Below are positions 163 to 61,197 of a stretch of 64,000 bases of DNA, one piece after another (position 1 is the first letter of the stretch; each line of letters begins with the position of its first letter). Made by a program: the position numbers and the translations under genes. Below the pieces are notes generated by a model. It was not told where the DNA came from, searched no databases, and saw only the letters and a list, made by a program, of their open reading frames with translations. Origin of the DNA: Actinomycetes bacterium (GTDB taxonomy: Bacteria > Actinomycetota > Acidimicrobiia > Acidimicrobiales > JAMCPL01); the NCBI GenBank assembly GCA_021816935.1, contig JAKAWR010000005.1, positions 10,256 through 74,255 of the forward strand, in the 5' to 3' direction.

Positions 163-930
163 GTGATTTCCGGCGACTCCCGAAAGAAGAACCCGCCTCA
201 GGCCGGTCCCGTGCCGATTCCGGCCAGACCTGGCGGGGGACATCGGCTGCACCTTGCGGCAACCTGGGACCGCCGTGCGCCGTCGTGGGACCATGGGGCA
301 TTGCCGGGCCTGCAGGTGGTGGTCGATCGTGTTATCGAGACTGCCGGGCCAGCTGCAGGTGCTGTCGTCCTCGATCTTGGTTGCGGGACGGGTTCGCTGG
401 CCCTGCCGCTCGCGGGCTCCGCCCGGCGGGTGGTGGCCGTCGACCTGAGCCGGGGGATGCTTGACGAGCTCCGGGCCAAGGCCGAGTCAGGTGGGATCGC
501 CAATATCGAGGTGGTGCGGTCTTCCATCGAGGAGTTACAGGCGGAACCCGAGAGCATGGACCTCGTCGTCTCCAACTATGCCCTACATCATCTTCGCGAT
601 ACTGCGAAACAGGCTGTCGTGCGGCGGGCATTCGGGTGGCTGCGGCCGGGAGGACGTATCGTTATCGGAGATATGATGTTCGGCCGGGGAGCAACTGGGA
701 GGGACCGGCAGATCATCGCTTCGAAGCTCGTAGCGTTCGCGAAGAAGGGGCCGGCAGGTTGGTGGCGCATCGTCAAGAACGTGGCGCGCTTCACGCTGCG
801 CTTTCAGGAACGGCCCGCGCCCGTTGAAAGGTGGACTACCTGGCTGGGGGAGGCCGGGTTCGAGCAGGTGAAGTCCATCGAGGTTCATGCCGAGGCGGCT
901 GTTGTCGTAGGAGTGAAGCCGCGGCACTGA
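163..930 (+). CDS. class I SAM-dependent methyltransferase (start uncertain)
   Basis: Has the VLDLGCGTGSLALPLA glycine-rich SAM motif and an AATWD N-terminal motif. The track ORF 13..930 reads through the repeat at 1-135, so the true start must lie downstream. In-frame GTGs occur at 163 and 211. Confidence 0.75.
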   Translation: MISGDSRKKNPPQAGPVPIPARPGGGHRLHLAATWDRRAPSWDHGALPGLQVVVDRVIETAGPAAGAVVLDLGCGTGSLALPLAGSARRVVAVDLSRGMLDELRAKAESGGIANIEVVRSSIEELQAEPESMDLVVSNYALHHLRDTAKQAVVRRAFGWLRPGGRIVIGDMMFGRGATGRDRQIIASKLVAFAKKGPAGWWRIVKNVARFTLRFQERPAPVERWTTWLGEAGFEQVKSIEVHAEAAVVVGVKPRH

Positions 931-1019
931 ACTGCCGCACCTAACCAGCGCACCGGATTGCCTCATCGAACCCCGCGCGCCCGGTCGCACGATACGGGAA
1001 GTCGGATACAATGGTCGGC

Positions 1020-1111
1020 GGAGAGGTGCGAGAGCGGCCGAATCGGACTCACTGCTAATGAGTTGACCTCGTAATAGGGGTCCGAGGGTTCAAATCCCTC
1101 CCTCTCCGCCA
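1020..1111 (+). tRNA. tRNA-Ser (anticodon GCT), CCA encoded
   Basis: Hand-folded cloverleaf: acceptor GGAGAGG/CCTCTCC, anticodon loop CTGCTAA, long variable arm, T-loop TTCAAAT, 3' GCCA. Confidence 0.9.
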
Positions 1112-1239
1112 AGTGGCCTGGCGCAGCGAAGGCATCAACGGCAGCTTCGGTTGCCGATATTGTGCCGTACCGGCAGGGACCTGCGATACGCCGTCGGGGG
1201 CCTCGTCTATCATGATGCGGTGTACTACCGGCAAGTGCC

Positions 1240-7942: not shown

Positions 7943-8974
7943 ATGCCGAGCCTCGTGGCGGCTGAAGGGCTGATGATCGACCTCCACCTGCATTCGCGCT
8001 TTTCGGATGGTTCCGAGGAGCCCGAGCGCGTGGTCGAACTCGCGGCCGAGGCAGGCTGTTCCGCCATTGCGCTTACCGATCACGATACCCTCGCGGGCAT
8101 ATCGAGGGCGCAATCCAGAGCCTCAGAGCTGGGGGTCGGCTTCGTATCAGGATGTGAGATCACGTGCAATTTCCCGCTGGGCGCTCTCAGCGTGGGGCCG
8201 CCGGCCGTAGAGGCAGCGATAGCGGCGACTCCTGTCGCGAGAATGCAGCCCGCGTACCCGACGATCGAACACTGCAGGGCGAGCAACGTCCACGTCCTTG
8301 CCTACTTCGTCGCTCCGGACTGCCGCCTGGCCGGGGAGCTCGTGAGTATCCTTTCTTCGCGGACCACTCGCAACCTGGAGCTCGTCGACAGGCTGGACTC
8401 TTTGGGAGTCCCGGTGCCCTACGACGACGTTCTCGAAGAGGCGGGAGGTTCCGAGAGTGTAGGCCGGCCGCATTTCGCTGCGGTCATGGCGAGAAGGGGG
8501 TATGTCGCAGACATTGACGAAGCGTTCGACAGGTGGCTCGGAGCGGGACGGCCAGCCTATGTACCTCGCAGGACACTCGGTTGTGATGAGTTGGCGCTGA
8601 TCGCCAGGGAGTCTGCAGTGGTGCTGTCGCTTGCACACCCCTTGCGCTACGGGTTCGGCCGGACCGAGCTCGAGGCCCTTGTTGGGTATCTTGCGGATAC
8701 GGGCTTTGCGGCCCTGGAAGCGGTCTACTCGGCGCATTCACCCGCGGAACAGGCCTTTGTGGAGGCGTTGGCTGCGAGGTATTCCATGGTCGTGACCGGC
8801 GGCTCCGACTTCCACGGAACCTACAAGGAGGGGATATCCCCGGGCACGGGGACGGGAGGGCTGGAAGCCCCCGATACGATCCTGGCCAACCTGGTGCGCC
8901 TTCGGGACGGGTTGCAGCCCCCGACGGAGGGGGTCTCTCCGGTGATCGTGCCCTCTTCGCCAGATGGGGGCTGA
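7943..8974 (+). CDS. PHP-domain metal-dependent phosphoesterase (TrpH/YciV-like)
   Basis: Motifs IDLHLHSRFSDGS, ALTDHDT and GGSDFHG. The real start may be the Met of MIDLHLHS at 7973. Confidence 0.8.
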   Translation: MPSLVAAEGLMIDLHLHSRFSDGSEEPERVVELAAEAGCSAIALTDHDTLAGISRAQSRASELGVGFVSGCEITCNFPLGALSVGPPAVEAAIAATPVARMQPAYPTIEHCRASNVHVLAYFVAPDCRLAGELVSILSSRTTRNLELVDRLDSLGVPVPYDDVLEEAGGSESVGRPHFAAVMARRGYVADIDEAFDRWLGAGRPAYVPRRTLGCDELALIARESAVVLSLAHPLRYGFGRTELEALVGYLADTGFAALEAVYSAHSPAEQAFVEALAARYSMVVTGGSDFHGTYKEGISPGTGTGGLEAPDTILANLVRLRDGLQPPTEGVSPVIVPSSPDGG

Positions 8975-29600: not shown

Positions 29601-30977
29601 GTGGTAGGGATGGCACAGCTCCTCGACACGCGAACCCGATCGAACGTACGCCCTATCGGCGGCCGAGTGCCTCCGCACAACCTCGAGGCCGAGGAGTCGC
29701 TGCTCGGTGCGATGCTGCTCTCCAAGGAGGCGGCGGGCTCCGCTGTCGATCGCGTGAGCCCCGAAGACTTCTACAAGCCCGCTCATTCGGCGATCTTCTC
29801 CGCAGTTCGTGCGCTGTACCTGCGCGGCGAACCGGTGGACGCCGTAACCGTCTACGAAGAGGTTACCAGGTCGGGAGCGGGAGACTTCGTCGCGGACGCC
29901 TCAGTTCTCGTGTCACTCCAGGTTGCTACCCCGACCGCAGGAGGCGTCGAGAGCTACGCGAGGATCGTGGAAGAGTATGCCCTCCTCCGGCGAATGATCG
30001 CGGCTGCCGGACAGATAGCGGATCTCGGCTATGAGGCTCCCGCGGACGTTACCGCTGCGCTGGACCAGGCTGAGTCCCTCATATTCGAGGTGGCGGAGCG
30101 GAGGGTCATTGACTCCCTGCAGGGCATCAAGGACCTGTTGCAGGGTAGTGTCAATGCCCTCGAGGAGATCGCAGCAAACGGGCGATCCGTCACGGGGACG
30201 CCGACCGGCTACCGCGATCTGGACGAGCATCTCTCGGGCCTGCAACCCTCCAACCTGGTGATCGTGGGTGCTCGCCCGTCCGCAGGCAAGACATCTTTCG
30301 CTCTTGGCGCCGTCTCGCATGTGGCCATCCACGAAGCGAAGCCCGTTCTCCTGTTCTCCCTGGAGATGAACCACATGGAGATCACCCAGCGTCTCATCGC
30401 CGCCGAGGCCAGGATCGACGTGACCAAGTTGCGCAGCGGTCGCCTTACCAATGCCGACTGGTCGAACGTCTGGACCGCCATAGCCCGGCTGGAGACTGCC
30501 CCCATCTGGATCGACGACAACCCGTCAGTCACAGTCATGGACATACGGGCGAAGGCCCGCCGCTTCATGGCCACCCAAAAGGGGCTTGGGCTCGTGGTTG
30601 TCGACTACATGCAGCTCATGACCGGTCGGGCGGGTGCCGAGAACCGCCAGGTAGAAGTGTCAGAGATATCGAGAGGCCTGAAGATTCTCGCTCGCGAGCT
30701 GAACGTACCCGTGCTCGCCCTCTCTCAGCTCTCCCGGGGTCTCGAGATGCGATCGGACAAGCGCCCGATGCTTGCGGACCTGAGGGAGTCCGGCTCCCTC
30801 GAACAGGACGCCGACGTCGTGCTCTTCATATACAGAGACGAGCTGTACAACCCGGAGTCGCCCGACCGCGGCACTGCCGAGATAATGGTTGCCAAGCACC
30901 GCAACGGACCTATAGGTGTGGTCAAGCTGGCTTTCGTGGAACGGTATGCCCGTTTTACCAACTATGCCCGGATGTGA
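29601..30977 (+). CDS. dnaB: replicative DNA helicase DnaB (no intein)
   Basis: N-terminal PPHNLEAEESLLGAMLL, Walker A GARPSAGKTSFAL, and LSQLSRGLE. Confidence 0.93.
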   Translation: MVGMAQLLDTRTRSNVRPIGGRVPPHNLEAEESLLGAMLLSKEAAGSAVDRVSPEDFYKPAHSAIFSAVRALYLRGEPVDAVTVYEEVTRSGAGDFVADASVLVSLQVATPTAGGVESYARIVEEYALLRRMIAAAGQIADLGYEAPADVTAALDQAESLIFEVAERRVIDSLQGIKDLLQGSVNALEEIAANGRSVTGTPTGYRDLDEHLSGLQPSNLVIVGARPSAGKTSFALGAVSHVAIHEAKPVLLFSLEMNHMEITQRLIAAEARIDVTKLRSGRLTNADWSNVWTAIARLETAPIWIDDNPSVTVMDIRAKARRFMATQKGLGLVVVDYMQLMTGRAGAENRQVEVSEISRGLKILARELNVPVLALSQLSRGLEMRSDKRPMLADLRESGSLEQDADVVLFIYRDELYNPESPDRGTAEIMVAKHRNGPIGVVKLAFVERYARFTNYARM

Positions 30978-35801: not shown

Positions 35802-36254
35802 TCAGGACTGGAACGGTTCCACCTCTATGACGATCTCGGCGTCGAGGTCGTGGAAAAGTTGGACCCTGACGTGATGCATGCCGACCGCCTTGATGGGTTC
35901 GGAGATCAGGATGCTCTTCCTGTCGATCTCGGGCCCCAACTGTGCTCGCACGGCCGTCGCGATGTCGGAACCGGTGACCGAGCCGAACAGCCTTCCGCCC
36001 GGACCGGACTTGGCGGTGATCTTGAGAGGGCCTTTCGTCAGGAGCGCCTGGATCGCCTCAGCCGACTCGCGGTCCCGAGCCTCTTTCAAATCGCGTGACC
36101 GGCGCATAGCAGCCGCCTGGTCGGCCAGGCCCGGGGTCAACCCCATCGCCAGGCCCCTGGGGAAAAGCAGGTTACGTGCGTACCCGTCGGCTACTGTGAC
36201 GATGTCACCTTTCTTGCCGAGTTTGTCGACGTCTGTTCGGAGTAGTACCTTCAT
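35802..36254 (-). CDS. rplI: 50S ribosomal protein L9
   Basis: [42 protein letters not shown] lies 8 nt upstream of the ATG, inside the end of rpsR. Confidence 0.95.
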
Positions 36255-36255
36255 C

Positions 36256-37059
36256 TCAGCCTACCTCCGGTCCGTTGTCGGCGCTGTCGGAAGCGGGCGC
36301 AACGGAAGGGGTCGGGGGCCCCGCATCCGCCGGTGCGGTCACGGCGGGATCAGCGGAGACAGGCTCCTCCACCAGGAGCGATTTCGTTGAGGCGGGTTTC
36401 TCTCCGGACGCTCCCCTCGAAGCCGTTCCCTCCACCTCGGGAACACCAAGCGCACCTTCGCCTCCACGCGCCCGCCCGCCTCCGGCACCAGGCATGCTTC
36501 GGTCTCCACGTTGGGATCCGCCCCTCCGCTCCCTGCCTGCCGCCGGCCTGCCTCGATCCGTGTTCCGATCCGTCCTTCCCCGCTCGCCATCCTGCCGGGG
36601 TGCCTCTCTCGTGGCAGCGTCCCGGGGTTGGTCGCCTTCCTCGCGGCGGGGGCGATTGTCCCGGTCCTCGCGGCCCTCGTAGCCGTGGTGCCCGTCCGGG
36701 CCGGCGTAGCGACCCTCGCGATTCTCGTAACGACTCGAAGGCGCAGTATCACCATTTGCGGAATAGCCTCGCCTGTTCGAGGTTCGCTCCGTCACGGGTC
36801 TCTGGGTGTAGGGAAGGAGGGCCAGTTCCCGAGCGGTCTTGACCGCGTTTGCGATCGCTTTTTGGTGGCGCTGGCAATTTCCGGTAACCCTCTTGGAACG
36901 GATCTTGCCCCTGTCGCTGACGTACCGCCTCAGGAGCTCGACGTCTTTGTAGTCGACCCACTTGACACTTGCAGCACAAAGCTGGCACGACCTTTGCTTG
37001 AACCTCCGGCCGGAATCCCTCGGCTGGGTCCGGGTGGATCTCTTGACGCTCCTTCCCAT
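36256..37059 (-). CDS. rpsR: 30S ribosomal protein S18 with ~180-aa C-terminal extension
   Basis: Canonical core [26 protein letters not shown]...[10 protein letters not shown] in the first ~85 aa. The frame then stays open to a TGA 1 nt before the rplI ATG. Confidence 0.85.
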
Positions 37060-37061
37060 GA

Positions 37062-37610
37062 TCAGAATGGCTCCTCGTCGTAGATTGGCGGGTAATCGGC
37101 TCCTTCGCCGCCCGCGTCCTTCAGTTCGTGATCCGGCGCAGGACGGCTCGCCCTGGGAGTGGCTGCGTATCCTTCACCGCCGCCATGTGTCGCCCCTGTG
37201 CCTCCCCGGCCACCCCCGGCAGCGCCTCCGTATTCGCCGGCCCCCCGGCGCTCGTTCTTCGTTACCTGGGCAGAGGCCCACCTAAGCGACGGGCCCACCT
37301 CGTCGGCAACGATCTCCACCTTGGATCGGTACTCGCCCTCCGGCGTCTCCCAGGAGCGCTGATCGAGACGCCCGGTGACCACCACTCGCGTGCCTTTTAC
37401 CAATGACTCGGAGGCGTTCTCCGCAAGCTCGCGCCAGCAGACCACATCAAAAAAAGAGGTCGCCTCCTCCCACTCGTTCGTCTGGCGGTTCTGCCAGCGC
37501 CGGTTGACGGCCAAGCCGAAAGTGAGCCTGGCCTGCCCGGTTGGCGTGTATCGCATCTCGGGGTCGCGCGTGACGTTGCCCACGAGCACAACTGTATTTC
37601 CATTGGACAT
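37062..37610 (-). CDS. ssb: single-stranded DNA-binding protein
   Basis: OB-fold N-terminus [23 protein letters not shown], Gly-rich linker, acidic tail IYDEEPF. Confidence 0.95.
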
Positions 37611-37676
37611 TCCTAAACGCTCCTTTGGATTTCGGGGGCCGCGTCCATCACGATAGCGTCTCTTCGACTCCAGGTT

Positions 37677-38408
37677 TCACTCGATCGCGTCCTGCGGATG
37701 GCCTTGCTCGCCGGCCCCGCCATCGTCAAGGCCTGAAGGTGTCGATTCGCTGCCACCCCTCGGATCGCTGCCGCTCCTCGAATAATCCCTCCGCCTCTCC
37801 CCCTCGCCGCCGCCCCCAGGTCCCCGGTACCCCCTGGCCTCGCCGCCCCTGCCAGGTCCCCGGTACCCCCTGGCCTCGCCGCCCCTGCCAGGTCCCCGGT
37901 ACCCCCTGGCCTCGCCGCCGCTCCCTGGCTCCCTTTCACCCCTCGAGTCTCTGTCGCCTCCTGCCTCCCTGCCCCTGATGGAGTCACCTCGCTGCCTCCC
38001 TGGGCGCTCCTGCGAACCATCAGGCGCTGCAGCGTCGCGTGGTGTCGTAATCGGGGAGCCGTCCTCGTCGCGTTCGGGCAATTTCAGGGCAGTTCGCCTG
38101 GTTACTCCCGGCTCGATACCCTCGGGAAGCCTGGTGATCCGGTGCCGGACCACTGCATCGGTCAGGTGGAAATGCCGGTCAAGCTCGGTCACGTTCCCGG
38201 TGTCCATATCGAAGCCCATGACAAGGTAGTAACCCTCGTCCTGATGCTTGATCTTGTAGGCAAGGGATCGCTTACCCCAGCGGTCGATTCCTCTTGGGGT
38301 GCCACCGGCCTTGACGATGACCTCTTTCGTCCGGTTGATCAGTGCGGTGCGCTCTTCTTCGCCAAGGGCCACGTCCGCGATGACCATTGCCTCATACGTT
38401 GCGATCAC
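37677..38408 (-). CDS. rpsF: 30S ribosomal protein S6 with ~145-aa RGG-repeat C-terminal extension
   Basis: The core (YEAMVIAD...DRWGKRSLAYKIKHQDEGYY...VVRHRITRL) occupies the first ~97 aa. It is followed by an R/G/E/D-rich tail that includes GGEARGYRGPGR x3. Confidence 0.88.
   Translation of the reverse strand: MIATYEAMVIADVALGEEERTALINRTKEVIVKAGGTPRGIDRWGKRSLAYKIKHQDEGYYLVMGFDMDTGNVTELDRHFHLTDAVVRHRITRLPEGIEPGVTRRTALKLPERDEDGSPITTPRDAAAPDGSQERPGRQRGDSIRGREAGGDRDSRGEREPGSGGEARGYRGPGRGGEARGYRGPGRGGEARGYRGPGGGGEGERRRDYSRSGSDPRGGSESTPSGLDDGGAGEQGHPQDAIE
37816..37920. repeat. 36-bp tandem repeat x ~2.9 inside the rpsF tail
   Basis: CCAGGTCCCCGGTACCCCCTGGCCTCGCCGCCCCTG at 37816-37851 and 37852-37887 (identical), with a third unit that diverges near its end. 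Confidence 0.9.
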
Positions 38409-44458: not shown

Positions 44459-45802
44459 TTACGGGTGTGACGAAAGTCCCACACTGGCCGGCGCCGTGGA
44501 AAGGGTGGTGGGAGCCGGGGGAGCCGGTTGCGCGAGGCCCTGCAGCGTGGCGAAGGAAGGCAATGCGCCAGGCGACGTGAGCTTCTCGAGAGCGCTCTGG
44601 TTGCCCTCCAGCTCGGCCTCGAAGAAGGCGGTCGTCACCTCGGCGGTGACCATCTCGAACTGGTCCCGGTGCATATAGGGGGAATAGTGGCCTGCGCCGC
44701 CGAGCTGCAGGTCATACTTCGTGCCTGTTGCCGCGTCGTATATGCGCTGCGAATCCGATGGGGGGTTGATGGTGTCGAACGTGCCCTGGACCACGAGGAG
44801 CGGAGGTCCAGGCGTGGTGAAGTAGCTGCCGGTGCCCGTTTCGAGCTCCTCGCCCGACAGGACTGCCGCCGCCTTCACGGCGCCGATGGCGCAGCAGGAG
44901 TCGTATGTGGCTGCGACGGTGGTGTCTCCCCCGTCGGAATGGCCCGCGAGCCCGATCTCGTCCGGGTCTATGAGACCTGAGAGGATATTGTCGGGCTGGG
45001 CGTCCAGCGAGAGGAGCCGGCCAAGGACGAAGCTCACGTCCTGTGGCTGGTTGACCATGTCATTCTCGTAGAGCCCACCGGGAGCGGCCGGGTTCGTGAG
45101 GGGAAATACAGGTGTGGCAACGACGAATCCGGCTCTTACCCAGGCGTCGAGAAGCGGCTGGTACTCCCATGGCCATACGTCGTATCCATGCGAGAAGACC
45201 ACAAGGGGGAGTTCCCGGGTCCCGAACGCACGAGGGAGGTGGTTCACGAGGGAAGGGCCGTAGCCGGCGGTGTCCCTCTTGGCGAAGGGGACGCCGGGTG
45301 ATTCGGTGCTGCCGGCGTGGGCGGAGACGGCCGGATACCAGACGTATGTCTCAATGATCCGCGGCTCGGGCGCTCCTGTCGGCGAATGTGGCGGGTAGAT
45401 GAACCTGCTCTGATCGACGAACTGGAATGATGCGACCCCTATTGCGTTTGCCTTTCTTCCGGGCTTCCGCGTGGTGGTAGAGGTGGGGGTCGTTGGAGGC
45501 AGGGGCAGCGGCGGGCAGGTCCTGTGCGACCGTGTGGCGCCCGTCGGGGCAGGCTTTGAGGGGGAGTTGCAGGGTCGCCGACTCTGGGGCTTCCACAGGC
45601 TCTCCAGGTTGCGGACGTCTCTTGCCGGCCCGGTAACGCCGATGGCGGTACCGGCAGCGAGTATGGCCAGCAACGTGATCGTCACGTGGCGGCGTCTCGG
45701 GCGTCCGTGGCGCGACCTGTGGGCCTCGACCGGACTGCGGGCGGGCGAGTGCTTCGATCTCTTCTTCGAGGCCCGTGGGACGGATCTTTTCCTGGTGGTC
45801 AA
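44459..45802 (-). CDS. secreted/anchored alpha/beta hydrolase (PAF-acetylhydrolase / dienelactone-hydrolase-like)
   Basis: N-terminal basic region plus a TM segment (VTITLLAILAAGTAIGV), a Pro/Thr linker, and the nucleophile elbow GLAGHSDGG. Confidence 0.65.
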   Translation of the reverse strand: MTTRKRSVPRASKKRSKHSPARSPVEAHRSRHGRPRRRHVTITLLAILAAGTAIGVTGPARDVRNLESLWKPQSRRPCNSPSKPAPTGATRSHRTCPPLPLPPTTPTSTTTRKPGRKANAIGVASFQFVDQSRFIYPPHSPTGAPEPRIIETYVWYPAVSAHAGSTESPGVPFAKRDTAGYGPSLVNHLPRAFGTRELPLVVFSHGYDVWPWEYQPLLDAWVRAGFVVATPVFPLTNPAAPGGLYENDMVNQPQDVSFVLGRLLSLDAQPDNILSGLIDPDEIGLAGHSDGGDTTVAATYDSCCAIGAVKAAAVLSGEELETGTGSYFTTPGPPLLVVQGTFDTINPPSDSQRIYDAATGTKYDLQLGGAGHYSPYMHRDQFEMVTAEVTTAFFEAELEGNQSALEKLTSPGALPSFATLQGLAQPAPPAPTTLSTAPASVGLSSHP

Positions 45803-55374: not shown

Positions 55375-56724
55375 GTGGCAGAAGGGGCCCCGGCTGCCGT
55401 AAGGGTCGTCCAGCTTGCCACCCGGCTGAATATAGGCGGGCCGGCGCGAGCCATCATCGAGCTTGCGAAAGGGCTTCCACGCCTAGGCGTAGGCGGGGCC
55501 GGAGTGGGCAGTTCCGGAGAAGGTGGGTCCCGCTTCGAGGTGACTGTTGCCGCCGGGACGGCGGCCGTGAGCGAGGGCGAGATGTCTGATCCGGAGGTTC
55601 CTGTCGAGGGGCTTCCCCTTGCAAGGCGGATTGATCCGATCACCGATGTACAGGCTCTGGCGGCTGTTCGTTGGCTCATTGCAGGGCATACGGCCGGTAC
55701 CGGCAGGGAGAGCGGGGCTGAATCGGCGGCGGGGCGGCAGGTATTTCGTGCCCGCCGGTTTCCCGGACGCGAAGCCGCGGTATTCGACGTCGTTCACACT
55801 CATATGGCAAAAGCAGGCGCCCTGGGACGCCTGGCTGCGCGCAGCTTCCGTCCCCGTCCAGTCACGGTACACACCTTTCACGGCCATGTGCTGGAGGGGT
55901 ACTTCAGTCGCCCGGCTGAGCGGGTTCTTGTCGCGGCCGAGAGGGTGCTCGCTGCTATGTCCGATGCGCTGGTCGCCGTCAGTGCCGAAATCAGGGACGA
56001 GCTGCTCTCGATGAGGATCGGCCGGCCGGGACAGTGGCACGTGATCCCGCTCGGTCTCGACCTCGACGGGTACCTGGCGGTTCCTGCTCCCGGCGAAGCG
56101 GTTCCAGCCTCCGGCGAACAAGAGCGGGGTTCATCCACCCGGCCGGACGTTGCCATGCGGGAGAGCCTGGACATTCCTTCCGGAGCGCCAGTCGTGGGGA
56201 TGATCGGCCGCCTGGTTCCCGTGAAGGACCATCACACTGCGTTTACGGCCATCGCCCGGACACCAGGCGTTCACTTGCTGGTGGTCGGTGACGGCGACGA
56301 GCGCGGCCGTCTCGAGTCGTACGCCGGCTCGCTCGGGATTGCGGACCGGGTGCGTTTCCTCGGGTGGCGCCATGACCTTCCCGAGCTTCTTGCGGCAATT
56401 GACGTGGTCGTGCTCACCAGTACCAACGAAGGGACCCCCGCCGCTCTCATCGAGGCTTCGGCGGCAGCGAGGCCCGTCGTGGCCACCCGGGCCGGCGGTG
56501 TGCCGGATGTCGTGATCGACGGCACCAGCGGGTTACTCGTGCCGCCCGGAGCCCCCGAGGCCCTTGCCGGCGCGCTGGCACGCCTCATCTCCGATCCCGC
56601 TGCCCGCCGGGATATGGGTATTGCGGGACGGGATCACGTAGCCTCGCGTTATGGCGCAGGCCGGTTCGTTGCCGGTACCGCTGCTCTTTACGAGGAGCTA
56701 CTGGAGGCCCGCCGGCACCGGTGA
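55375..56724 (+). CDS. GT4-family glycosyltransferase
   Basis: The C-terminal EGTPAALIEASAAARPVVATRAGGVPDVV (E-x7-E type) and N-terminal QLATRLNIGGPA. The GTG start at 55375 lies just after the upstream stop. Confidence 0.8.
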   Translation: MAEGAPAAVRVVQLATRLNIGGPARAIIELAKGLPRLGVGGAGVGSSGEGGSRFEVTVAAGTAAVSEGEMSDPEVPVEGLPLARRIDPITDVQALAAVRWLIAGHTAGTGRESGAESAAGRQVFRARRFPGREAAVFDVVHTHMAKAGALGRLAARSFRPRPVTVHTFHGHVLEGYFSRPAERVLVAAERVLAAMSDALVAVSAEIRDELLSMRIGRPGQWHVIPLGLDLDGYLAVPAPGEAVPASGEQERGSSTRPDVAMRESLDIPSGAPVVGMIGRLVPVKDHHTAFTAIARTPGVHLLVVGDGDERGRLESYAGSLGIADRVRFLGWRHDLPELLAAIDVVVLTSTNEGTPAALIEASAAARPVVATRAGGVPDVVIDGTSGLLVPPGAPEALAGALARLISDPAARRDMGIAGRDHVASRYGAGRFVAGTAALYEELLEARRHR

Positions 56725-58277
56725 CGGAGTATCCTTTGCAGAGCGCCGATTCCGGTAACGGTAATCCGGTCGTCGTGATCGGTGCCGGGCCGGCCGGCCT
56801 GACGGCCGCGTACGAGCTTGGCAAGCGGGGCCGGGGTGCCGTCGTCCTGGAGTCAGACGGTGTTGTGGGTGGTCTTTCGAGGACTGTCGTGAGCGACGGA
56901 TGGCGCTTCGATCTCGGCGGGCACCGCTTCTTTACCAAGGTTCCGGCGGTCGAGGCTCTCTGGCGGGAGATCCTCCCAGGCGGGGATTTCGTCACCAGGC
57001 GGCGTATGAGCCGTATCTACTACGAGGGCAGGTTCTACGATTACCCCCTGAAGGCTGCAAATGTCTTGGCCAACCTCGGTCCACTGGAGGCGGCCAGATG
57101 CGTGGCGTCCTATGCGTGGGCGAAGGTGCATCCGCCGGGCGATCTCGATTCGTTCGAGGGCTGGGTGGCGGCGCGCTTCGGCAGGCGCCTCTACGGCAAA
57201 TTCTTCAAGGACTATACCGAGAAGGTGTGGGGGGTCCCCGCTACTTCGATCGGCGCGGACTGGGCAGCCCAGAGGATCAGGAACCTGTCGCTCGGAAGAG
57301 CAGCGGTGCGGGCGCTCCTACCAGGGTTAAGGGATCGGCGTGACGTGGCAAGCCTCATCGAGACCTTCGAGTACCCGCGGCTCGGACCGGGGATGATGTG
57401 GGAGGCGTGCGCACGCAGGATCACGGCGATGGGGGGAAGGATCCTGCTTGGGAGCCCCGTTGAGCGCGTGGCCTGTGAAGCCGGCCGCCTGAGGTCGGTC
57501 GTCTACCGGACCCGGCGGGGGCACGCCGAGATCGCGGCGCCGGCCCTGATCTCCTCGATGCCGCTTGGCGAGCTCGCGCGGGCACTCGATCCTTCGCCGC
57601 CCGAGAACGTGCTCCAGGCGGCAGGATCGCTTTCGTACAGGGCTCATCTGACGGTGGCACTCGTGGTCCCGTCCGGCGCCGGCTTCCCGGACAACTGGAT
57701 CTACGTCCACGATCCCAGGGTCAAGGTGGGGCGCATCCAGAACTTCGGCTCGTGGTCTCCCTGGATGGTCAGGGATGGCCAGACCTGCCTCGGTATGGAG
57801 TATTTCCTTTTCGAGGGGGACGATCTGTGGCGGGACAGCGATGCGGATCTCGTCGAGATGGCGATAGGCGAGCTTCGCATGATCGGACTAGCCGGGAGCG
57901 CTGATGTCGAGTCAGGTTATGCCGTCCGCATGGCCAAGGCTTATCCCGTGTACGACGAGGCCTACGCCGATGCGGTCGATTCAATTCGGGACTGGATAGA
58001 GCGGCATGCCGCCGGCGTCCATCCCGTCGGGCGCAACGGCATGCATAGGTACAACAACCAGGATCACTCCATGCTTACTGCGATGCTGGCGGTGGAGAAC
58101 ATAGTGGATGGCACCTGCCACGACATCTGGTCGGTCAATGTGGAGGCGGAATACCTCGAGGAGCACCGGGCCGGGGGCGTATGCTGTAGTGGGGCCACGG
58201 CTGGTGCCAACGGATCGAGCATGCGGGAAGCGGGTGAAACGGGCCGCGCGGCACCGGTCGTTCGCCTGCGGGCATGA
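56721..58277 (+). CDS. FAD-dependent oxidoreductase (amine-oxidase / UDP-galactopyranose-mutase-like)
   Basis: Dinucleotide motif VVVIGAGPAGLTAAYEL, VLESDGVVGGLSRT, and FDLGGHRFF. The GTG start overlaps the GT4 stop (GTGA). Confidence 0.78.
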   Translation: MTEYPLQSADSGNGNPVVVIGAGPAGLTAAYELGKRGRGAVVLESDGVVGGLSRTVVSDGWRFDLGGHRFFTKVPAVEALWREILPGGDFVTRRRMSRIYYEGRFYDYPLKAANVLANLGPLEAARCVASYAWAKVHPPGDLDSFEGWVAARFGRRLYGKFFKDYTEKVWGVPATSIGADWAAQRIRNLSLGRAAVRALLPGLRDRRDVASLIETFEYPRLGPGMMWEACARRITAMGGRILLGSPVERVACEAGRLRSVVYRTRRGHAEIAAPALISSMPLGELARALDPSPPENVLQAAGSLSYRAHLTVALVVPSGAGFPDNWIYVHDPRVKVGRIQNFGSWSPWMVRDGQTCLGMEYFLFEGDDLWRDSDADLVEMAIGELRMIGLAGSADVESGYAVRMAKAYPVYDEAYADAVDSIRDWIERHAAGVHPVGRNGMHRYNNQDHSMLTAMLAVENIVDGTCHDIWSVNVEAEYLEEHRAGGVCCSGATAGANGSSMREAGETGRAAPVVRLRA

Positions 58278-58480
58278 ACCCTGGGGGACTGCTGTCGCCG
58301 GCCGCCCGGATCGCCAGTCTCATTATCAGGCATTTCTATACCAGCATACTTTTACGCCATGGCCTCTGACCTGCATAACTACATGTATGTCATTTCTTAT
58401 GTGTTAGCCGTTATCACCCGTAGAAGGCACGTTTGTAGGCACGACATATCGTGATGCAATGTTATGTTGCGATGCCAAGA

Positions 58481-58540
58481 CGGGACGTGGCGGGACGGTG
58501 CGGGACGGGACGTGGCGGCGCGGGACGGGGGGAGACGGAG
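58481..58540. repeat. degenerate 10-bp tandem repeat CGGGACGKKG
   Basis: cgggacgtgg cgggacggtg cgggacggga cgtggcggcg cgggacgggg, immediately after an AT-rich stretch (58320-58470). Confidence 0.7.
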
Positions 58541-58704
58541 GTACAAGCGGGGCACCGGGTGCTCCTGGCGTCCTTGTGCCCGTGTGCCGTGGCAGGGGCC
58601 AGGGGTGGACCTGGCGGGCCGAGCGGGCCTGGGGTGCCCGGGATTCGTCAGACGTGCCAGTCATCCGCCGTCGCAGACCAGATCCCCGTCGGCCCCGGGG
58701 GGTG

Positions 58705-58933
58705 CCCTAGCATCACGCAACGTCACGTGACGCAATATCGCTCCGAGCAGGGCGAACGTCACGTGCGCCGATTGGGGCGTCATATGCGTGACGTACTATC
58801 GCAACACGACCAACAATAACGTCACGTGACGCACCAGCGCCCTTACCAGAGACAACGTCACGTGCCAACGCTCTGAGTAGGGCGAACGTCACGGCCGTCA
58901 CAGAACTATCGTAACACGACCAGAAACCCTAGG
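58705..58933. promoter_or_regulatory. array of CGTCACGTGACG palindromes / CGTCA half-sites (candidate protein-binding array)
   Basis: Perfect 12-bp palindromes at 58721-58732 and 58820-58831. Related sites at 58757, 58778-58793, 58856 and 58887-58901. All sit within an imperfect ~100-130 bp direct duplication flanked by CCCTAG. Confidence 0.55.
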
Positions 58934-58954
58934 TGCATCGGTGGCGACCGCCTG

Positions 58955-59131
58955 ACCCACTCTCCCCTCCCCAACCTCTCACCCCCTCCCCAAACCTCTC
59001 TTTTGCTCTCTCTTTCCCTACCCCAACCTCTCTCTTCCACCCAACCTCTCACACCTCCCCACCACCCTCCTTACCACCCTCCTTACCACACCTCTCCCTA
59101 CCACCCACCTACCACCTACCACCTACCCTTC
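58955..59131 (+). repeat. 177-nt C/T/A-only (virtually G-free) low-complexity tract
   Basis: There is a single G (59005) in 177 nt. Internal sub-repeats are CCAACCTCTC, CACCCTCCTTAC x2 and CACCTAC x3. The complementary strand is G-rich and C-free. Confidence 0.9.
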
Positions 59132-59386
59132 GATATTCGATTTCCAGTAATGATCCCCCCCAACGTTATTGTGGTTGTATCGCAGTGCACGTGAGAACGC
59201 CGGACACCTGCGCTGCCTGATGCGCGCTTGGAATGGTGGGCGGGAGCGGTCGGGGCGGGAGCGGTCGGGCGATCGCTCGTCGGTGGTCGTGGTGGCTCCC
59301 CCGCAGGGGCTCTCGCTCATACATGTCGACTACTGACGCGGCTAGTGCTTGGCCGTATCGGTCCGCGGCCACCAACTACAAATCGT

Positions 59387-59422
59387 TTGCATTAATTGCC
59401 GTGGCGTGCTACACTGACGTCA
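59387..59422 (+). promoter_or_regulatory. candidate promoter plus TGACGTCA palindrome upstream of the surface-protein gene
   Basis: TTGCAT (59387-59392), a 17-nt spacer, TACACT (59410-59415), then TGACGTCA (59415-59422), followed by GCGCAAGGGAC x2 (59430-59451). Confidence 0.45.
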
Positions 59423-59556
59423 TCTTGGCGCGCAAGGGACGCGCAAGGGACGGTTGCAGATGGCTAGATCGTCTAGGTAAGTCATACGGTTGGATACCGA
59501 GGAGCGCAACGGGGAAGGAACCGGGTTGCCGGCCTCCAGAGGGGTGCGGGCGGTCA

Positions 59557-61197
59557 GTGCAAGTGTGCTCGCACTTCTCATGTTCATCGACGCTCGGACT
59601 CGTGCTGGCAACAGGCGCGCCTGCCTCGGCTTCCACGCCGGTACTCCCGGTACTGAACTGGACCCAGGTTTGTACGAGCTCCTGTACGAGCCCTCCCGCC
59701 CGCGACCTCGCCACCATGGCCTATGACCCGGCAACGGGGAACATGGTGCTCTTCGGGGGCGACGGCAGCAGCGGCTACCTCGCCGACACCTGGAGTTTCT
59801 ATCAGGTAGTAGTCCCACCTTCTAAGCCCACACAAAGCCCGCCATCTGTGACAGCCGGATCGGTAACTGTGAACTGGACGGCCCTATCGCTCGACGGCGG
59901 ATCTCCAATCACCGGATATGACGTCTACATGAGCACATCATCCGGCGGTGAGAACTACGGCGGATCTCCCGCCTGCACAGGGGGAGCCTCGGCAACGAGC
60001 TGTAGCGTGTCAGGGCTTACGAACGGCACCACCTACTACTTCACGGTAGAGGCGACAAACGCGGCCGGAAGCTCCTCTCCTTCGAACGAGGAGCAGGCAA
60101 CCCCTGTGAACCCCCCGCCTGCACCTGCCCCACCGGTTGTCTCCTCTGTGGCGCCTTCTTCCGGGCCCGAGCAGGGCGGCACCTCTGTCGTGATCACCGG
60201 TACGAACTTCACCTCGGGGGCAACTGTGGACTTCGGAACTTCTGGAGCAACAGATGTGGCGGTCGTCTCTGCTACGAAGATCACGGCCACCTCGCCTGGC
60301 GGAACTGGAGTGGTAGACGTGACCGTAACAACTGGTGCCGGCACCTCTGCCAAGTCCCGAGCAGACGACTTCAGCTACCAAAGCCCTCCCGTCATACCTC
60401 CTGGATCGCTCTACACTGCGGTTTCTCCAGCAAGGATATGTGACACGAGACCAGCTAACCCCTCGAACCTCTCTGGGCCAGCCTCCCAGTGCAACGGCCA
60501 CACCCTATCTCCGGGCACGCCCCTTTCTGTCCAAGTGGCAGGTGCCGGCCCGGTACCTTCAACCGGTGTGTCAGCGGTGGTGCTTGCCGTAACCGCCACG
60601 GGGTTCTCTTCGGCCGGCTACCTCAGCGTCTATCCAGCCGGAGGACCAGCACCGATTGCGTCCAACCTGAACTTCTACCCAGGTAAGGACGATGTCGGAA
60701 ATACGGTGGTGGTCCCCCTCGGTGGGAAAGGAGCCGTCTACCTCGTCTCCAATGCGGCTACAGACGTCGTTCTCGACGTGGTCGGCTACTACTCTTCGTC
60801 TGGTCCTGGAAGCCGTTTTAGCGCCGAGGCTTCCCCGGTTCGCATATGTGACACGAGACCAGCTAACCCCTCGAACCTCTCTGGTACCGCCTCCCAGTGC
60901 AACGGAGCCACCATGGGGAAAGGATCGGAGATGACCGTCTCTGTGGCCGGGCTTGCTGGTGTTCCCATGACCGCTACAGCGGTTGTTGTAAACGTGACAG
61001 CAATACCAACCCAAGGACCGGGCTACCTCACGATCTGGCCGGGCGGCACGAGGCCCACGGTATCGAACCTCAGCTGGGACACCGGCCAAATCGTGGCAGA
61101 GACCACCGTGGCCACCTTGGCCACATCGGGCACGATCACCATCTACGCGTCCGCCTCGACAGATGTCATCGTCGACGTAGAGGGCTGGTACTCCTGA
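59557..61197 (+). CDS. secreted multidomain surface protein (Kelch-like motif, FN3, IPT/TIG, two copies of an uncharacterised beta domain)
   Basis: Hydrophobic TLGLVLATGAPASAS; Kelch-like MAYDPATGNMVLFGGDG...DTWSF; FN3 (VTVNWTA...ITGYDVY...TYYFTVEATNAAG); IPT (GGTSVVITGTNFTSGATVDFG). These are followed by two repeats starting RICDTRPANPSNLSG.ASQCNG and ending DV..GYYS/GWYS. The start is uncertain: the track ORF begins at 59233 inside the non-coding island. Confidence 0.75.
   Translation: MQVCSHFSCSSTLGLVLATGAPASASTPVLPVLNWTQVCTSSCTSPPARDLATMAYDPATGNMVLFGGDGSSGYLADTWSFYQVVVPPSKPTQSPPSVTAGSVTVNWTALSLDGGSPITGYDVYMSTSSGGENYGGSPACTGGASATSCSVSGLTNGTTYYFTVEATNAAGSSSPSNEEQATPVNPPPAPAPPVVSSVAPSSGPEQGGTSVVITGTNFTSGATVDFGTSGATDVAVVSATKITATSPGGTGVVDVTVTTGAGTSAKSRADDFSYQSPPVIPPGSLYTAVSPARICDTRPANPSNLSGPASQCNGHTLSPGTPLSVQVAGAGPVPSTGVSAVVLAVTATGFSSAGYLSVYPAGGPAPIASNLNFYPGKDDVGNTVVVPLGGKGAVYLVSNAATDVVLDVVGYYSSSGPGSRFSAEASPVRICDTRPANPSNLSGTASQCNGATMGKGSEMTVSVAGLAGVPMTATAVVVNVTAIPTQGPGYLTIWPGGTRPTVSNLSWDTGQIVAETTVATLATSGTITIYASASTDVIVDVEGWYS

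Follow-up and report, generated by a model that had tools for sequence, protein, structure and literature searches.

The closest described relatives of the element reported here are sites on Streptomyces plasmids. The 12-bp palindrome CGTCACGTGACG received the name sps, short for 'spdA palindromic sequence', from Thoma et al. in 2014 (PMC4170104), and is found in one to three copies in or beside the gene spdA on many of these plasmids. SpdA2 of plasmid pIJ101 binds sps in electrophoretic mobility shift assays (EMSA); full segregational stability of pIJ303 needs sps, transfer and pock formation do not, and a single copy of the site is present on the chromosome of S. coelicolor (PMC4170104). SpdA of pSVH1 interacts with TraB, SpdB2, SpdB3 and Spd79 (Thoma et al. 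2015, PMC4447253); two-hybrid data connect SpdA with the TraB/Spd DNA-translocation complex, and the protein was proposed as an adaptor linking the DNA substrate to that complex (PMC4447253). The present text deals with an array of sps-type sites at 58705-58932 of a 64-kb window (the whole stretch of DNA analysed, 64,000 nucleotides of contig JAKAWR010000005.1) from an uncultured, Acidimicrobiales-like actinobacterium.

The array is a non-coding stretch of about 230 bases with six clustered motif copies, of which two are full palindromes and four are half-sites or split sites. Judged by its letters, the 12-mer at 58721-58732 and 58820-58831 is sps itself, being identical at every position to the site bound by SpdA2 of pIJ101; each copy sits in the 16-mer AACGTCACGTGACGCA. 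With one mismatch allowed, CGTCACGTGACG was found three times in the window against 0.31 expected, a count reached in none of 100 shuffles. No exact sps occurred elsewhere in the window, and one near-match (45680) falls in a coding signal peptide. The 8-mer ACGTCACG was present in six copies within 174 bp (58720-58893), five of them on the plus strand, and in three more copies in the remaining 64 kb. The clustering of the sites exceeds chance, and no other part of the 64-kb window proved similar to the array. With a core identical to a site defined by EMSA as a target of SpdA2 (PMC4170104), the array is very probably a protein-binding one, as the original prediction had proposed. We favour, with a probability of roughly 0.45, an orphan array of sps-type sites that would load a zinc-finger protein of the SpdA/FCS type supplied in trans.

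Comparable arrays were sought in one genome per species (185,579 species) with the pattern AACGTCACGTG-N18-30-AACGTCACG, sites being 29 to 41 bp apart. The scan returned 20 loci, about the number expected by chance, and the only clear arrays among them were those of Streptomyces spdA genes (loci L010, L012, L017, L018 and L020): a pSVH1-like Streptomyces plasmid displayed four AACGTCACGTGACGTT sites 33 bp apart, and four chromosomal or contig loci of Streptomyces displayed two sites each. The sites lay in the 3' half of a small gene whose product begins with a zinc finger, C..C...PRRYCSRNCRQRAYEARK, and sps copies in spdA genes translate as (T)SRD(V/D). A consensus S-A-A/T-CGTCACGTGACG-T/A-T-S emerged from 24 sites of ten spdA loci, with left-flank statistics partly biased by the search pattern. 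The spacing was 33 or 36 bp in L010, L012, L017, L018, L020, L059, L061, L067 and L086. The window sites match the spdA-borne ones in core, in the left flank AA and in the range of spacings, their right flank being CA; core and spdA-type flanks taken together, a window site agrees at 14 of 16 positions.

Two plasmids from this survey deserve separate mention. On the pSVH1-like plasmid NZ_CP191270.1 (L017), spdA occupies 1213..797 of the minus strand, with its four sps 33 bp apart in the 3' half; GCTAGC-type repeats follow, then parA on the same strand (start near 714), so that one stability module directly adjoins another. An sps-ParA connection was considered and dropped: in sister plasmids the partners of this ParA are a small ribbon-helix-helix protein and GCTAGC repeats, and because these ParA modules come without spdA, the nearness of spdA and sps to parA is incidental. 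On a Streptomyces virginiae plasmid (NZ_CP107876.1; L089, 3300-3700), a long run of tandem repeats of the GGACCGCCGGACCGGGGGA type, about 20 nt each, lies upstream of parA and resembles, by eye, a clt/TRS array.

Candidate readers were not restricted to Streptomyces. An AlphaFold2 model of SpdA (33-sequence alignment, mean predicted local distance difference test score 80) predicted a zinc knuckle and one long helix beginning at CRQRAYE; no significant PDB neighbour was found by sequence or fold. A profile search with the SpdA domain gathered 93 proteins, which included, beyond the SpdA proteins of Streptomyces, chromosomal 'FCS-type' proteins of 100 to 140 residues from Corynebacterium, Rhodococcus, Labedaea and Acidimicrobiales. 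One of them, P0185, encoded on an Acidimicrobiales chromosome, carries the SpdA DNA-binding domain (...PRRYCKRSCRQRAYELR...), and its relatives share a conserved neighbourhood that includes genes for a 5'-3' exonuclease and for a regulator of the ArsR type. In Acidimicrobiales genomes (L091 10001-10348, L105 and L109), a conserved chromosomal family of proteins of 113 to 140 residues displays the SpdA-like zinc finger C.WCG...PRRYC.RSCRQRAYE.R, its genes lying near such exonuclease and regulator genes. Since P0185-type genes are present in Acidimicrobiales, a candidate reader exists in this bacterial class. The possibility that sps is an auto-operator of FCS-type genes was rejected, no sps-like palindrome being found within 400 bp upstream or within 10 kb on either side of them (L091-L094, L105-L111); sps, a site rare by chance, was likewise not seen in about 100 kb of Acidimicrobiales DNA examined.

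Related repeats were encountered in phages. Scans of metagenomes and viral sequences gave GTCACG/GTCACGTGAC repeats in phage genes resembling lambda O (L050, L099, L098, L082 and L047), one of which (L050, 4595-5740) matched phrog_16167 (E 9e-12) and is flanked by genes for a primase and a DnaB-like helicase. The repeats translate as 'SRD' and are packed every 8 to 20 bp. In L050 (4595-5740), L099 (500-1714), L098, L082, L047 and L072 they crowd a linker that comes after the basic stretch '...ERAKAYRERKR...', and appear as SRD/VTR runs; they are probably origins embedded in the initiator gene. Because the same core is used as phage iterons, SpdA is not the sole possible reader of such sites; it is the sole one shown experimentally for the exact 12-mer, and others are conceivable.

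Further matches were set aside. L006 (Solirubrobacterales) and L016 (Actinophytocola) held only half-sites in housekeeping contexts, in about the number expected by chance. L062 displayed a 35-nt satellite, AACGTCACGTGACGCAGCGCTCTGATTTGTGACGC, in 14.5 copies (1-506 and 8195-8331), which has a 20-mer and a CGCTCTGA box in common with the window units. Given the abundance of (GT)n/(CA)n microsatellites on this contig, a eukaryotic origin and a convergent likeness are probable; other low-GC metagenome matches, which look eukaryotic and are rich in (GT)n microsatellites and assorted satellites, were treated in the same way.

The segment at 58705-58932 bears CCCTAG at both ends (58705 and 58927) and consists of two tandem super-units, each formed by a palindrome, a half-site and a terminal unit. 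Super-unit 1 contains site P1 (AACGTCACGTGACGCA, 58719-58734), a full sps palindrome whose left flank AA matches the spdA-borne sites and whose right flank is CA instead of TT/AT. The half-site AACGTCACGTG (58755-58765, plus strand) begins the 63-nt terminal unit T1, which contains the split inverted site CGTCA-TATGCG-TGACGT (58778-58794; CGTCA-N6-TGACG at 58778-58793), the right half of which is the sole minus-strand ACGTCACG; the conserved 18-mer ACTATCGCAACACGACCA (58795-58812, plus strand) closes the super-unit. Super-unit 2 comprises site P2 (AACGTCACGTGACGCA, 58818-58833), a full palindrome where a second genomic copy reads ...GACGTA; a half-site AACGTCACGTG (58854-58864, plus strand) belonging to the 31-nt unit H2; AACGTCACGGCCGTCAC (58885-58901, plus strand), two tandem GTCAC half-sites that represent a shortened terminal unit and include CGTCACGGCCGTCAC at 58887-58901; and the closing second 18-mer, ACTATCGTAACACGACCA (58905-58922, plus strand). 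The CGTCACGTG half-sites start at 58757 and 58856. A right-hand extension (58933-59003) is also found in the second genomic copy, near-identity covering 58922-58960, and a C/T-rich low-complexity tract begins in it.

Three units could be recognised: P (36 nt), which is AACGTCACGTGACGYA plus 20 nt; H (31 nt), AACGTCACGTGCC...CGCTCYGAGYAGGGCG; and T (63 nt), AACGTCACGTGCG...GCGTCATATGCGTGACGT followed by ACTATCGCAACACGACCA. Their order in the window copy is P1-T1-P2-H2-T2', and the AACGTCAC cores succeed each other, start to start, at 36, 63, 36 and 31 bp, while the half-site spacings vary (0, 2 and 6 nt). TRF made no tandem-repeat call on the array, good conservation from unit to unit being limited to the site cores. 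No terminal inverted repeats of the kind expected for miniature inverted-repeat transposable elements or insertion sequences were found at the array; the terminal CCCTAG copies are direct, and homology with the second genomic copy extends beyond the right-hand one. A direct repeat at 58888, GTCACGGCCGTCACAG, recalls the GTCACAgcg boxes of MtrA and was set aside, the other sites being inverted repeats. All elements listed in the original prediction (palindromes, 16-mers, half-sites, split site, CGTCACGGCCGTCAC and the CCCTAG pair) were present, and its description of a non-coding, imperfect tandem duplication was borne out, the 25-mers at 58739 and 58869 being 92 % identical. Of its pair of 18-mers, the one at 58795 was in place and the other begins at 58905, not 58904.

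A diverged second copy of the array (copy B) appeared as an alternative path in Logan contigs from four runs and more than one study. Its left flank is unrelated up to 58704 (it ends ...GGTGGGGCGGGGGCGGGGCA before CCCTAG), and homology starts at 58705. Copy B is near-identical to the window copy as far as 58831, apart from an extra H unit that replaces the 4 nt at 58735-58738 by 35 nt (net +31 nt); 25 to 28 substitutions are spread over 58832-58921 (about 30 % divergence), and near-identity resumes from 58922 to at least 59003. The depths of copy B and of the genome followed each other in each of the four runs (56 against 60, 6.7 against 11, 5 against 6.5 and 6.5 against 6.4), and the metagenomes show only two array copies at 80 % likeness or more. 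The simplest reading, of which contig graphs are no proof, places copy B at another locus of this genome and does not take it for a strain allele. The original prediction had counted alignment to a known repeat against itself, and this was found in part, the array being a two-copy repeat of this genome.

Both full palindromes are retained in copy B, where the right flank at P2 is TA. The perfect 14-mer AACGTCACGTGACG occurs four times across the two copies, though adjacent spacers diverge by up to 50 %. The inferred ancestral super-unit measures 36+31+63 = 130 nt, which is not divisible by three; as read from the two copies, the in-frame arrangement of the window copy arose by loss of one 31-nt unit.

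Neither Pfam nor PHROG families were matched by the open reading frames (ORFs) of the gap that holds the array. The claim that all reading frames are open here did not hold, as TAG at 58708 and TGA at 58728 close two of them; that none looks coding did. A minus-strand ORF (58713-58901) keeps four of the sites in one frame (ASRDV, ARDV, SRDV and ARDV). A coding array was ruled out by the missing family matches and the 31-nt indel: the array is non-coding because its copies differ by one such unit, and the 'SRDV' ORF is best explained as a product of the palindrome itself and the chance loss of a unit. A structured RNA was rejected as well: Rfam gave only microRNA matches at chance level, no family was assigned, and the RNA fold of 58440-59140 was no better than shuffles (z = -0.57). 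The DNA fold of the array reached z = -3.2 because of the palindromes only. Distant blastn with 58690-58950 found no match in PLSDB or INPHARED, and neither the 18-mer nor the unit junction occurred in IMG/VR.

Exopolysaccharide genes on one side and the gene of a secreted fn3/TIG protein on the other border the 1.25-kb gap in which the array is found. Upstream, a FAD-dependent oxidoreductase (56721-58277) is the last gene of a UDP-glucose dehydrogenase/glycosyltransferase cluster, its stop codon being about 430 bp from the array; downstream follows a secreted fn3/TIG/Kelch protein (ORF 59233-61197) with a probable GTG start at 59557 and then a signal peptide. The closest relatives of the flanking protein are 57 to 66 % identical, the named ones being metagenomic genomes of Acidimicrobiales. 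The window is core chromosome, with purine-synthesis genes, clpB, dnaJ-grpE-dnaK, genes of acyl-CoA metabolism and NAD synthase; neither a compositional island nor a GC-skew switch was seen at the array, and oriC and dnaA are not in the window. The origin-like gene content previously noted is present as rplI-rpsR-ssb-rpsF (35802-38408, minus strand) and dnaB (29601-30977, plus strand), but dnaB is not contiguous with the ribosomal-protein genes. Public runs containing this DNA were exclusively mine-drainage and sediment metagenomes.

Other features of the gap were observed on both sides. To the left, G-rich repeats with periods of 5, 10 and 25 nt (GGGACG..., able to form G-quadruplexes on the plus strand) occupy 58479-58540. 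To the right, a C/T-rich low-complexity tract (58950-59125; G-runs on the minus strand) is partly common to copy B, and a similar tract is found on a third contig of equal depth. Directly left of the array, 40 to 59 nt within 58633-58691 are 88 to 95 % identical to pieces of several other contigs from the same metagenomes, with depths of 632x, 26x, 14x and 2.6x against 56x for this genome and with unrelated flanks. Its minus strand reads ...ADGDLVCDGG*, an ATGA overlap and then MTGTSDE..., and in either version its flanks can pair, each time through different letters. This fragment gave no Rfam family and no significant fold energy; it may represent the relic of a gene junction, an att-like remnant or a small RNA. 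Before the fn3/TIG gene, a promoter-like TTGCAT-N17-TACACT (59388-59414) has TGACGTCA at the expected transcription start, the two spanning 59388-59422, and a perfect 11-nt tandem repeat, CGCGCAAGGGA, occurs twice at 59429-59450. The TGACGTCA palindrome was indeed found at 59415; it is a single 8-mer of which 0.93 are expected by chance, and its proposed association with the promoter is without statistical support.

In the favoured reading of the locus as an orphan sps-type array, dimers of a SpdA-like protein would read the ACGT-core palindrome with the basic long helix, and the two full and four partial sites would nucleate a multi-dimer complex with dimers side by side. Since no such gene adjoins the array, the protein must come in trans, from a conjugative plasmid, an integrative element or a chromosomal FCS-type paralogue of Acidimicrobiales. 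If pIJ101 and pSVH1 are a guide, such a complex would provide a handle in cis for DNA maintenance, positioning or translocation; a classical promoter operator is not what is envisaged, no promoter-like site lying closer than about 460 bp. Binding by the SpdA family, use of the array and function of the complex are all inferred.

Several observations weigh against this reading. Although sps has been described as 'always associated' with a spdA gene, the zinc finger typical of spdA products (C..C...YCS..CRQRAYE) appeared in no frame of the 64 kb, whether by six-frame regular expression or by a profile hidden Markov model built from six SpdA domains (best window E 0.59). Pfam annotation of the window detected no plasmid, integrative-element or phage gene (integrase, Rep, Tra). 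It is for these two reasons, no SpdA domain and no plasmid or integrative-element context, that the array is called orphan. The right flank of the window palindromes, CA, lacks the outer T that is invariant in the 24 spdA-borne sites, and the FCS-type genes on the chromosomes of Acidimicrobiales, Rhodococcus and Labedaea had no sps nearby. Where copy B has diverged, site cores changed by about 30 % against 28 % for spacers, and one half-site (58854-58864) was lost outright, with five of its 11 bases changed; because cores changed about as often as spacers, the sites show no sign of selection. The use of the GTCACGTGAC core as iterons inside phage replisome-organizer genes belongs here too, as does the fact that all public runs with this DNA are DNA runs, with none of RNA among them.

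Some of these points would suit a dead relic, in which the decayed remains of a spdA gene's 3' part, or a fragment of a formerly integrated conjugative plasmid or integrative element, were later duplicated in the chromosome and are now unbound. The sps copies of spdA genes lie in the 3' half and read (T)SRD(V/D), a frame that the minus-strand ORF at 58713-58901 keeps for four sites; the half-sites are degenerate, one is lost in copy B, cores are no better conserved than spacers, and the fragment at 58633-58691, common to other organisms and possibly att-like or a gene remnant, abuts the array. This origin nevertheless seems rather unlikely to us: neither the gap nor the window showed a remnant of a zinc-finger or mobile-element gene, the 130 nt of the ancestral super-unit do not divide by three, the four perfect AACGTCACGTGACG survive in two copies despite the divergence of the spacers, and the array has more sites than any spdA gene seen. 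A minisatellite or dispersed repeat that is inert, has no binding function and expanded through slippage and unequal crossing-over would agree with the single 31-nt unit difference and heavy substitution between copies, with the low-complexity repeats on either side and with the eukaryote-like satellites that display the same 10-mer (L062, L027 and L066). We hold it to be improbable, as an exact match of 14 to 16 nt to a known binding site, four times in two copies, is unexpected for a random satellite, TRF called no tandem repeat, and the good conservation between units is confined to the site cores.

The remaining explanations retain a binding function and assign it to other proteins. The intergenic position (a polysaccharide cluster to one side, the gene of a cell-surface protein to the other), the plausible downstream promoter at 59388-59414 with its overlapping TGACGTCA, and half-site spacings of 0, 2 and 6 nt, as in flexible dimeric regulators, could point to an array through which an unrelated transcription factor controls the fn3/TIG/Kelch or exopolysaccharide genes, as from an operator or in the manner of an enhancer, the identity with sps being convergence on an ACGT-core palindrome. 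Such a role is doubtful given the distances to the promoter-like site and to the upstream stop codon (about 460 and 430 bp), the chance rate of TGACGTCA, the lack of a regulator gene adjacent to the array and of single sites upstream of other window genes (the near-match at 45680 being in a coding signal peptide), and the different left flank of the second copy. A phage or plasmid replication origin of the iteron type, remnant or active, would recall the arrays in O-like initiator genes beside primase and DnaB-type helicase genes (L050, L099, L098, L082 and L047) and the AT-rich stretches flanking the gap (44 to 47 % GC at 58300-58450). We judge it very unlikely: the neighbours are the FAD oxidoreductase and the fn3/TIG protein, with no initiator, helicase or primase gene or remnant nearby, the iterons of O-like genes come every 8 to 20 bp and not every 31 to 36 bp, and there is no GC-skew switch. 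The original prediction had proposed a variant centromere for a ParB-, Noc- or KorB-like protein of altered specificity, in view of the central TCACGTGA, which is the parS core, of the rpsF-ssb-rpsR-rplI and dnaB genes, often origin-proximal in actinobacteria, and, one may add, of the two genomic copies. Derivation from parS did not survive: the match covers only 10 of 16 positions with both flanks differing, the window holds no parS at three mismatches or fewer and no ParA or ParB among the ORFs scanned, and the palindrome fits a different, experimentally defined site, sps, at 12 of 12 positions; the proximity of sps to parA in the pSVH1-like plasmid, being incidental, does not help. We regard a centromere of this sort as highly improbable, while the wording 'centromere-like' was fairly close in spirit, sps affecting plasmid segregational stability.

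A broader version of the favoured reading may be mentioned as a long shot. Here sps, not being confined to plasmids, would be recognised by FCS-type zinc-finger proteins of a larger family that is in part chromosomal (Streptomyces SpdA and those of Corynebacterium, Rhodococcus, Labedaea and Acidimicrobiales). Chromosomal arrays would be host loading sites for DNA positioning or translocation, copied by conjugative plasmids to hitch onto the same machinery, or would be used by the SpdA of a resident element to tether to the chromosome or to mobilise it. This would explain the conservation of sps among otherwise unrelated plasmids. If true, it would extend the double-stranded-DNA transfer biology of Streptomyces to a deep-branching, non-mycelial class of actinobacteria.

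What is new here is an sps-type array that is orphan, expanded, non-coding, chromosomal, present in two copies and outside Streptomyces. To our knowledge, sps has so far been encountered only inside or beside spdA on Streptomyces plasmids, and the array would be the first case of its separation from the gene. The function of SpdA and sps has been a question since the 1990s; mutants display mild defects in stability or spreading, and sps is strikingly well conserved on plasmids that have little else in common. If the array is in use, it suggests a trans-acting and possibly host-encoded reader and would offer a natural substrate on which the action of an sps-protein complex could be studied. If it is a relic, it is the trace of conjugative elements of the Streptomyces type that once reached a distant lineage, uncultured and from acid mine drainage. 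The idea of a parS variant falls in either case.

Compared with the sps/SpdA systems of pIJ101, pJV1, pSN22, pSVH1 and further conjugative plasmids of Streptomyces (PMC4170104, PMC4447253), the array shares the 12-bp CGTCACGTGACG with the left flank AA and the direct succession of sites at about 33 to 36 bp, and both belong to Actinomycetota. It differs in having no spdA gene in it, beside it or anywhere in the 64 kb, and in its right flank, which is CA instead of TT/AT. The known systems are plasmid-borne in Streptomyces and display one to four full sites, whereas the array lies amid chromosomal housekeeping and exopolysaccharide genes of an Acidimicrobiales-like host and displays six sites, mostly half-sites. 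Unlike sps in spdA, it is non-coding and occurs as two diverged copies per genome.

The parS/ParB systems (TGTTNCACGTGAAACA) have the central 8 bp TCACGTGA in common with the array; both sites are palindromic and multi-copy and may bear on segregation or stability. However, the left flank is TGTT in parS and AACG in the array, all four positions differing, and two of the four right-flank positions differ too. parS occurs as individual 16-mers spread across tens of kb, while the array is a tandem with steps of 31 to 36 bp, and in contrast to parS/ParB systems the window contains neither ParAB genes nor a canonical parS. Iterons of phage replisome organizers (lambda O-like and DnaD-like) resemble the array as clustered GTCACG/GTCACGTGAC sites that read 'SRD' and come from mobile elements of high-GC bacteria; they are embedded, at intervals of 8 to 20 bp, in an initiator gene that has primase and helicase genes as neighbours, whereas the array has no such gene and a wider spacing.

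In type Ib plasmid centromeres, which depend on ribbon-helix-helix proteins of the ParG or omega type, short sites nucleate a higher-order complex that affects plasmid stability, as is proposed for the array. These centromeres need a partner ParA ATPase along with the ribbon-helix-helix protein, and in the plasmids examined the role is filled by GCTAGC-type repeats, not by sps. The clt/TRS loci of Streptomyces plasmids are composed of 8-bp GACCCGGA repeats bound by TraB, and chromosomal clt-like copies were proposed to allow mobilisation of the chromosome. Although motif and protein family differ, clt/TRS and the array as proposed here would have in common that short repeats acting in cis provide a plasmid protein with a handle on double-stranded DNA.

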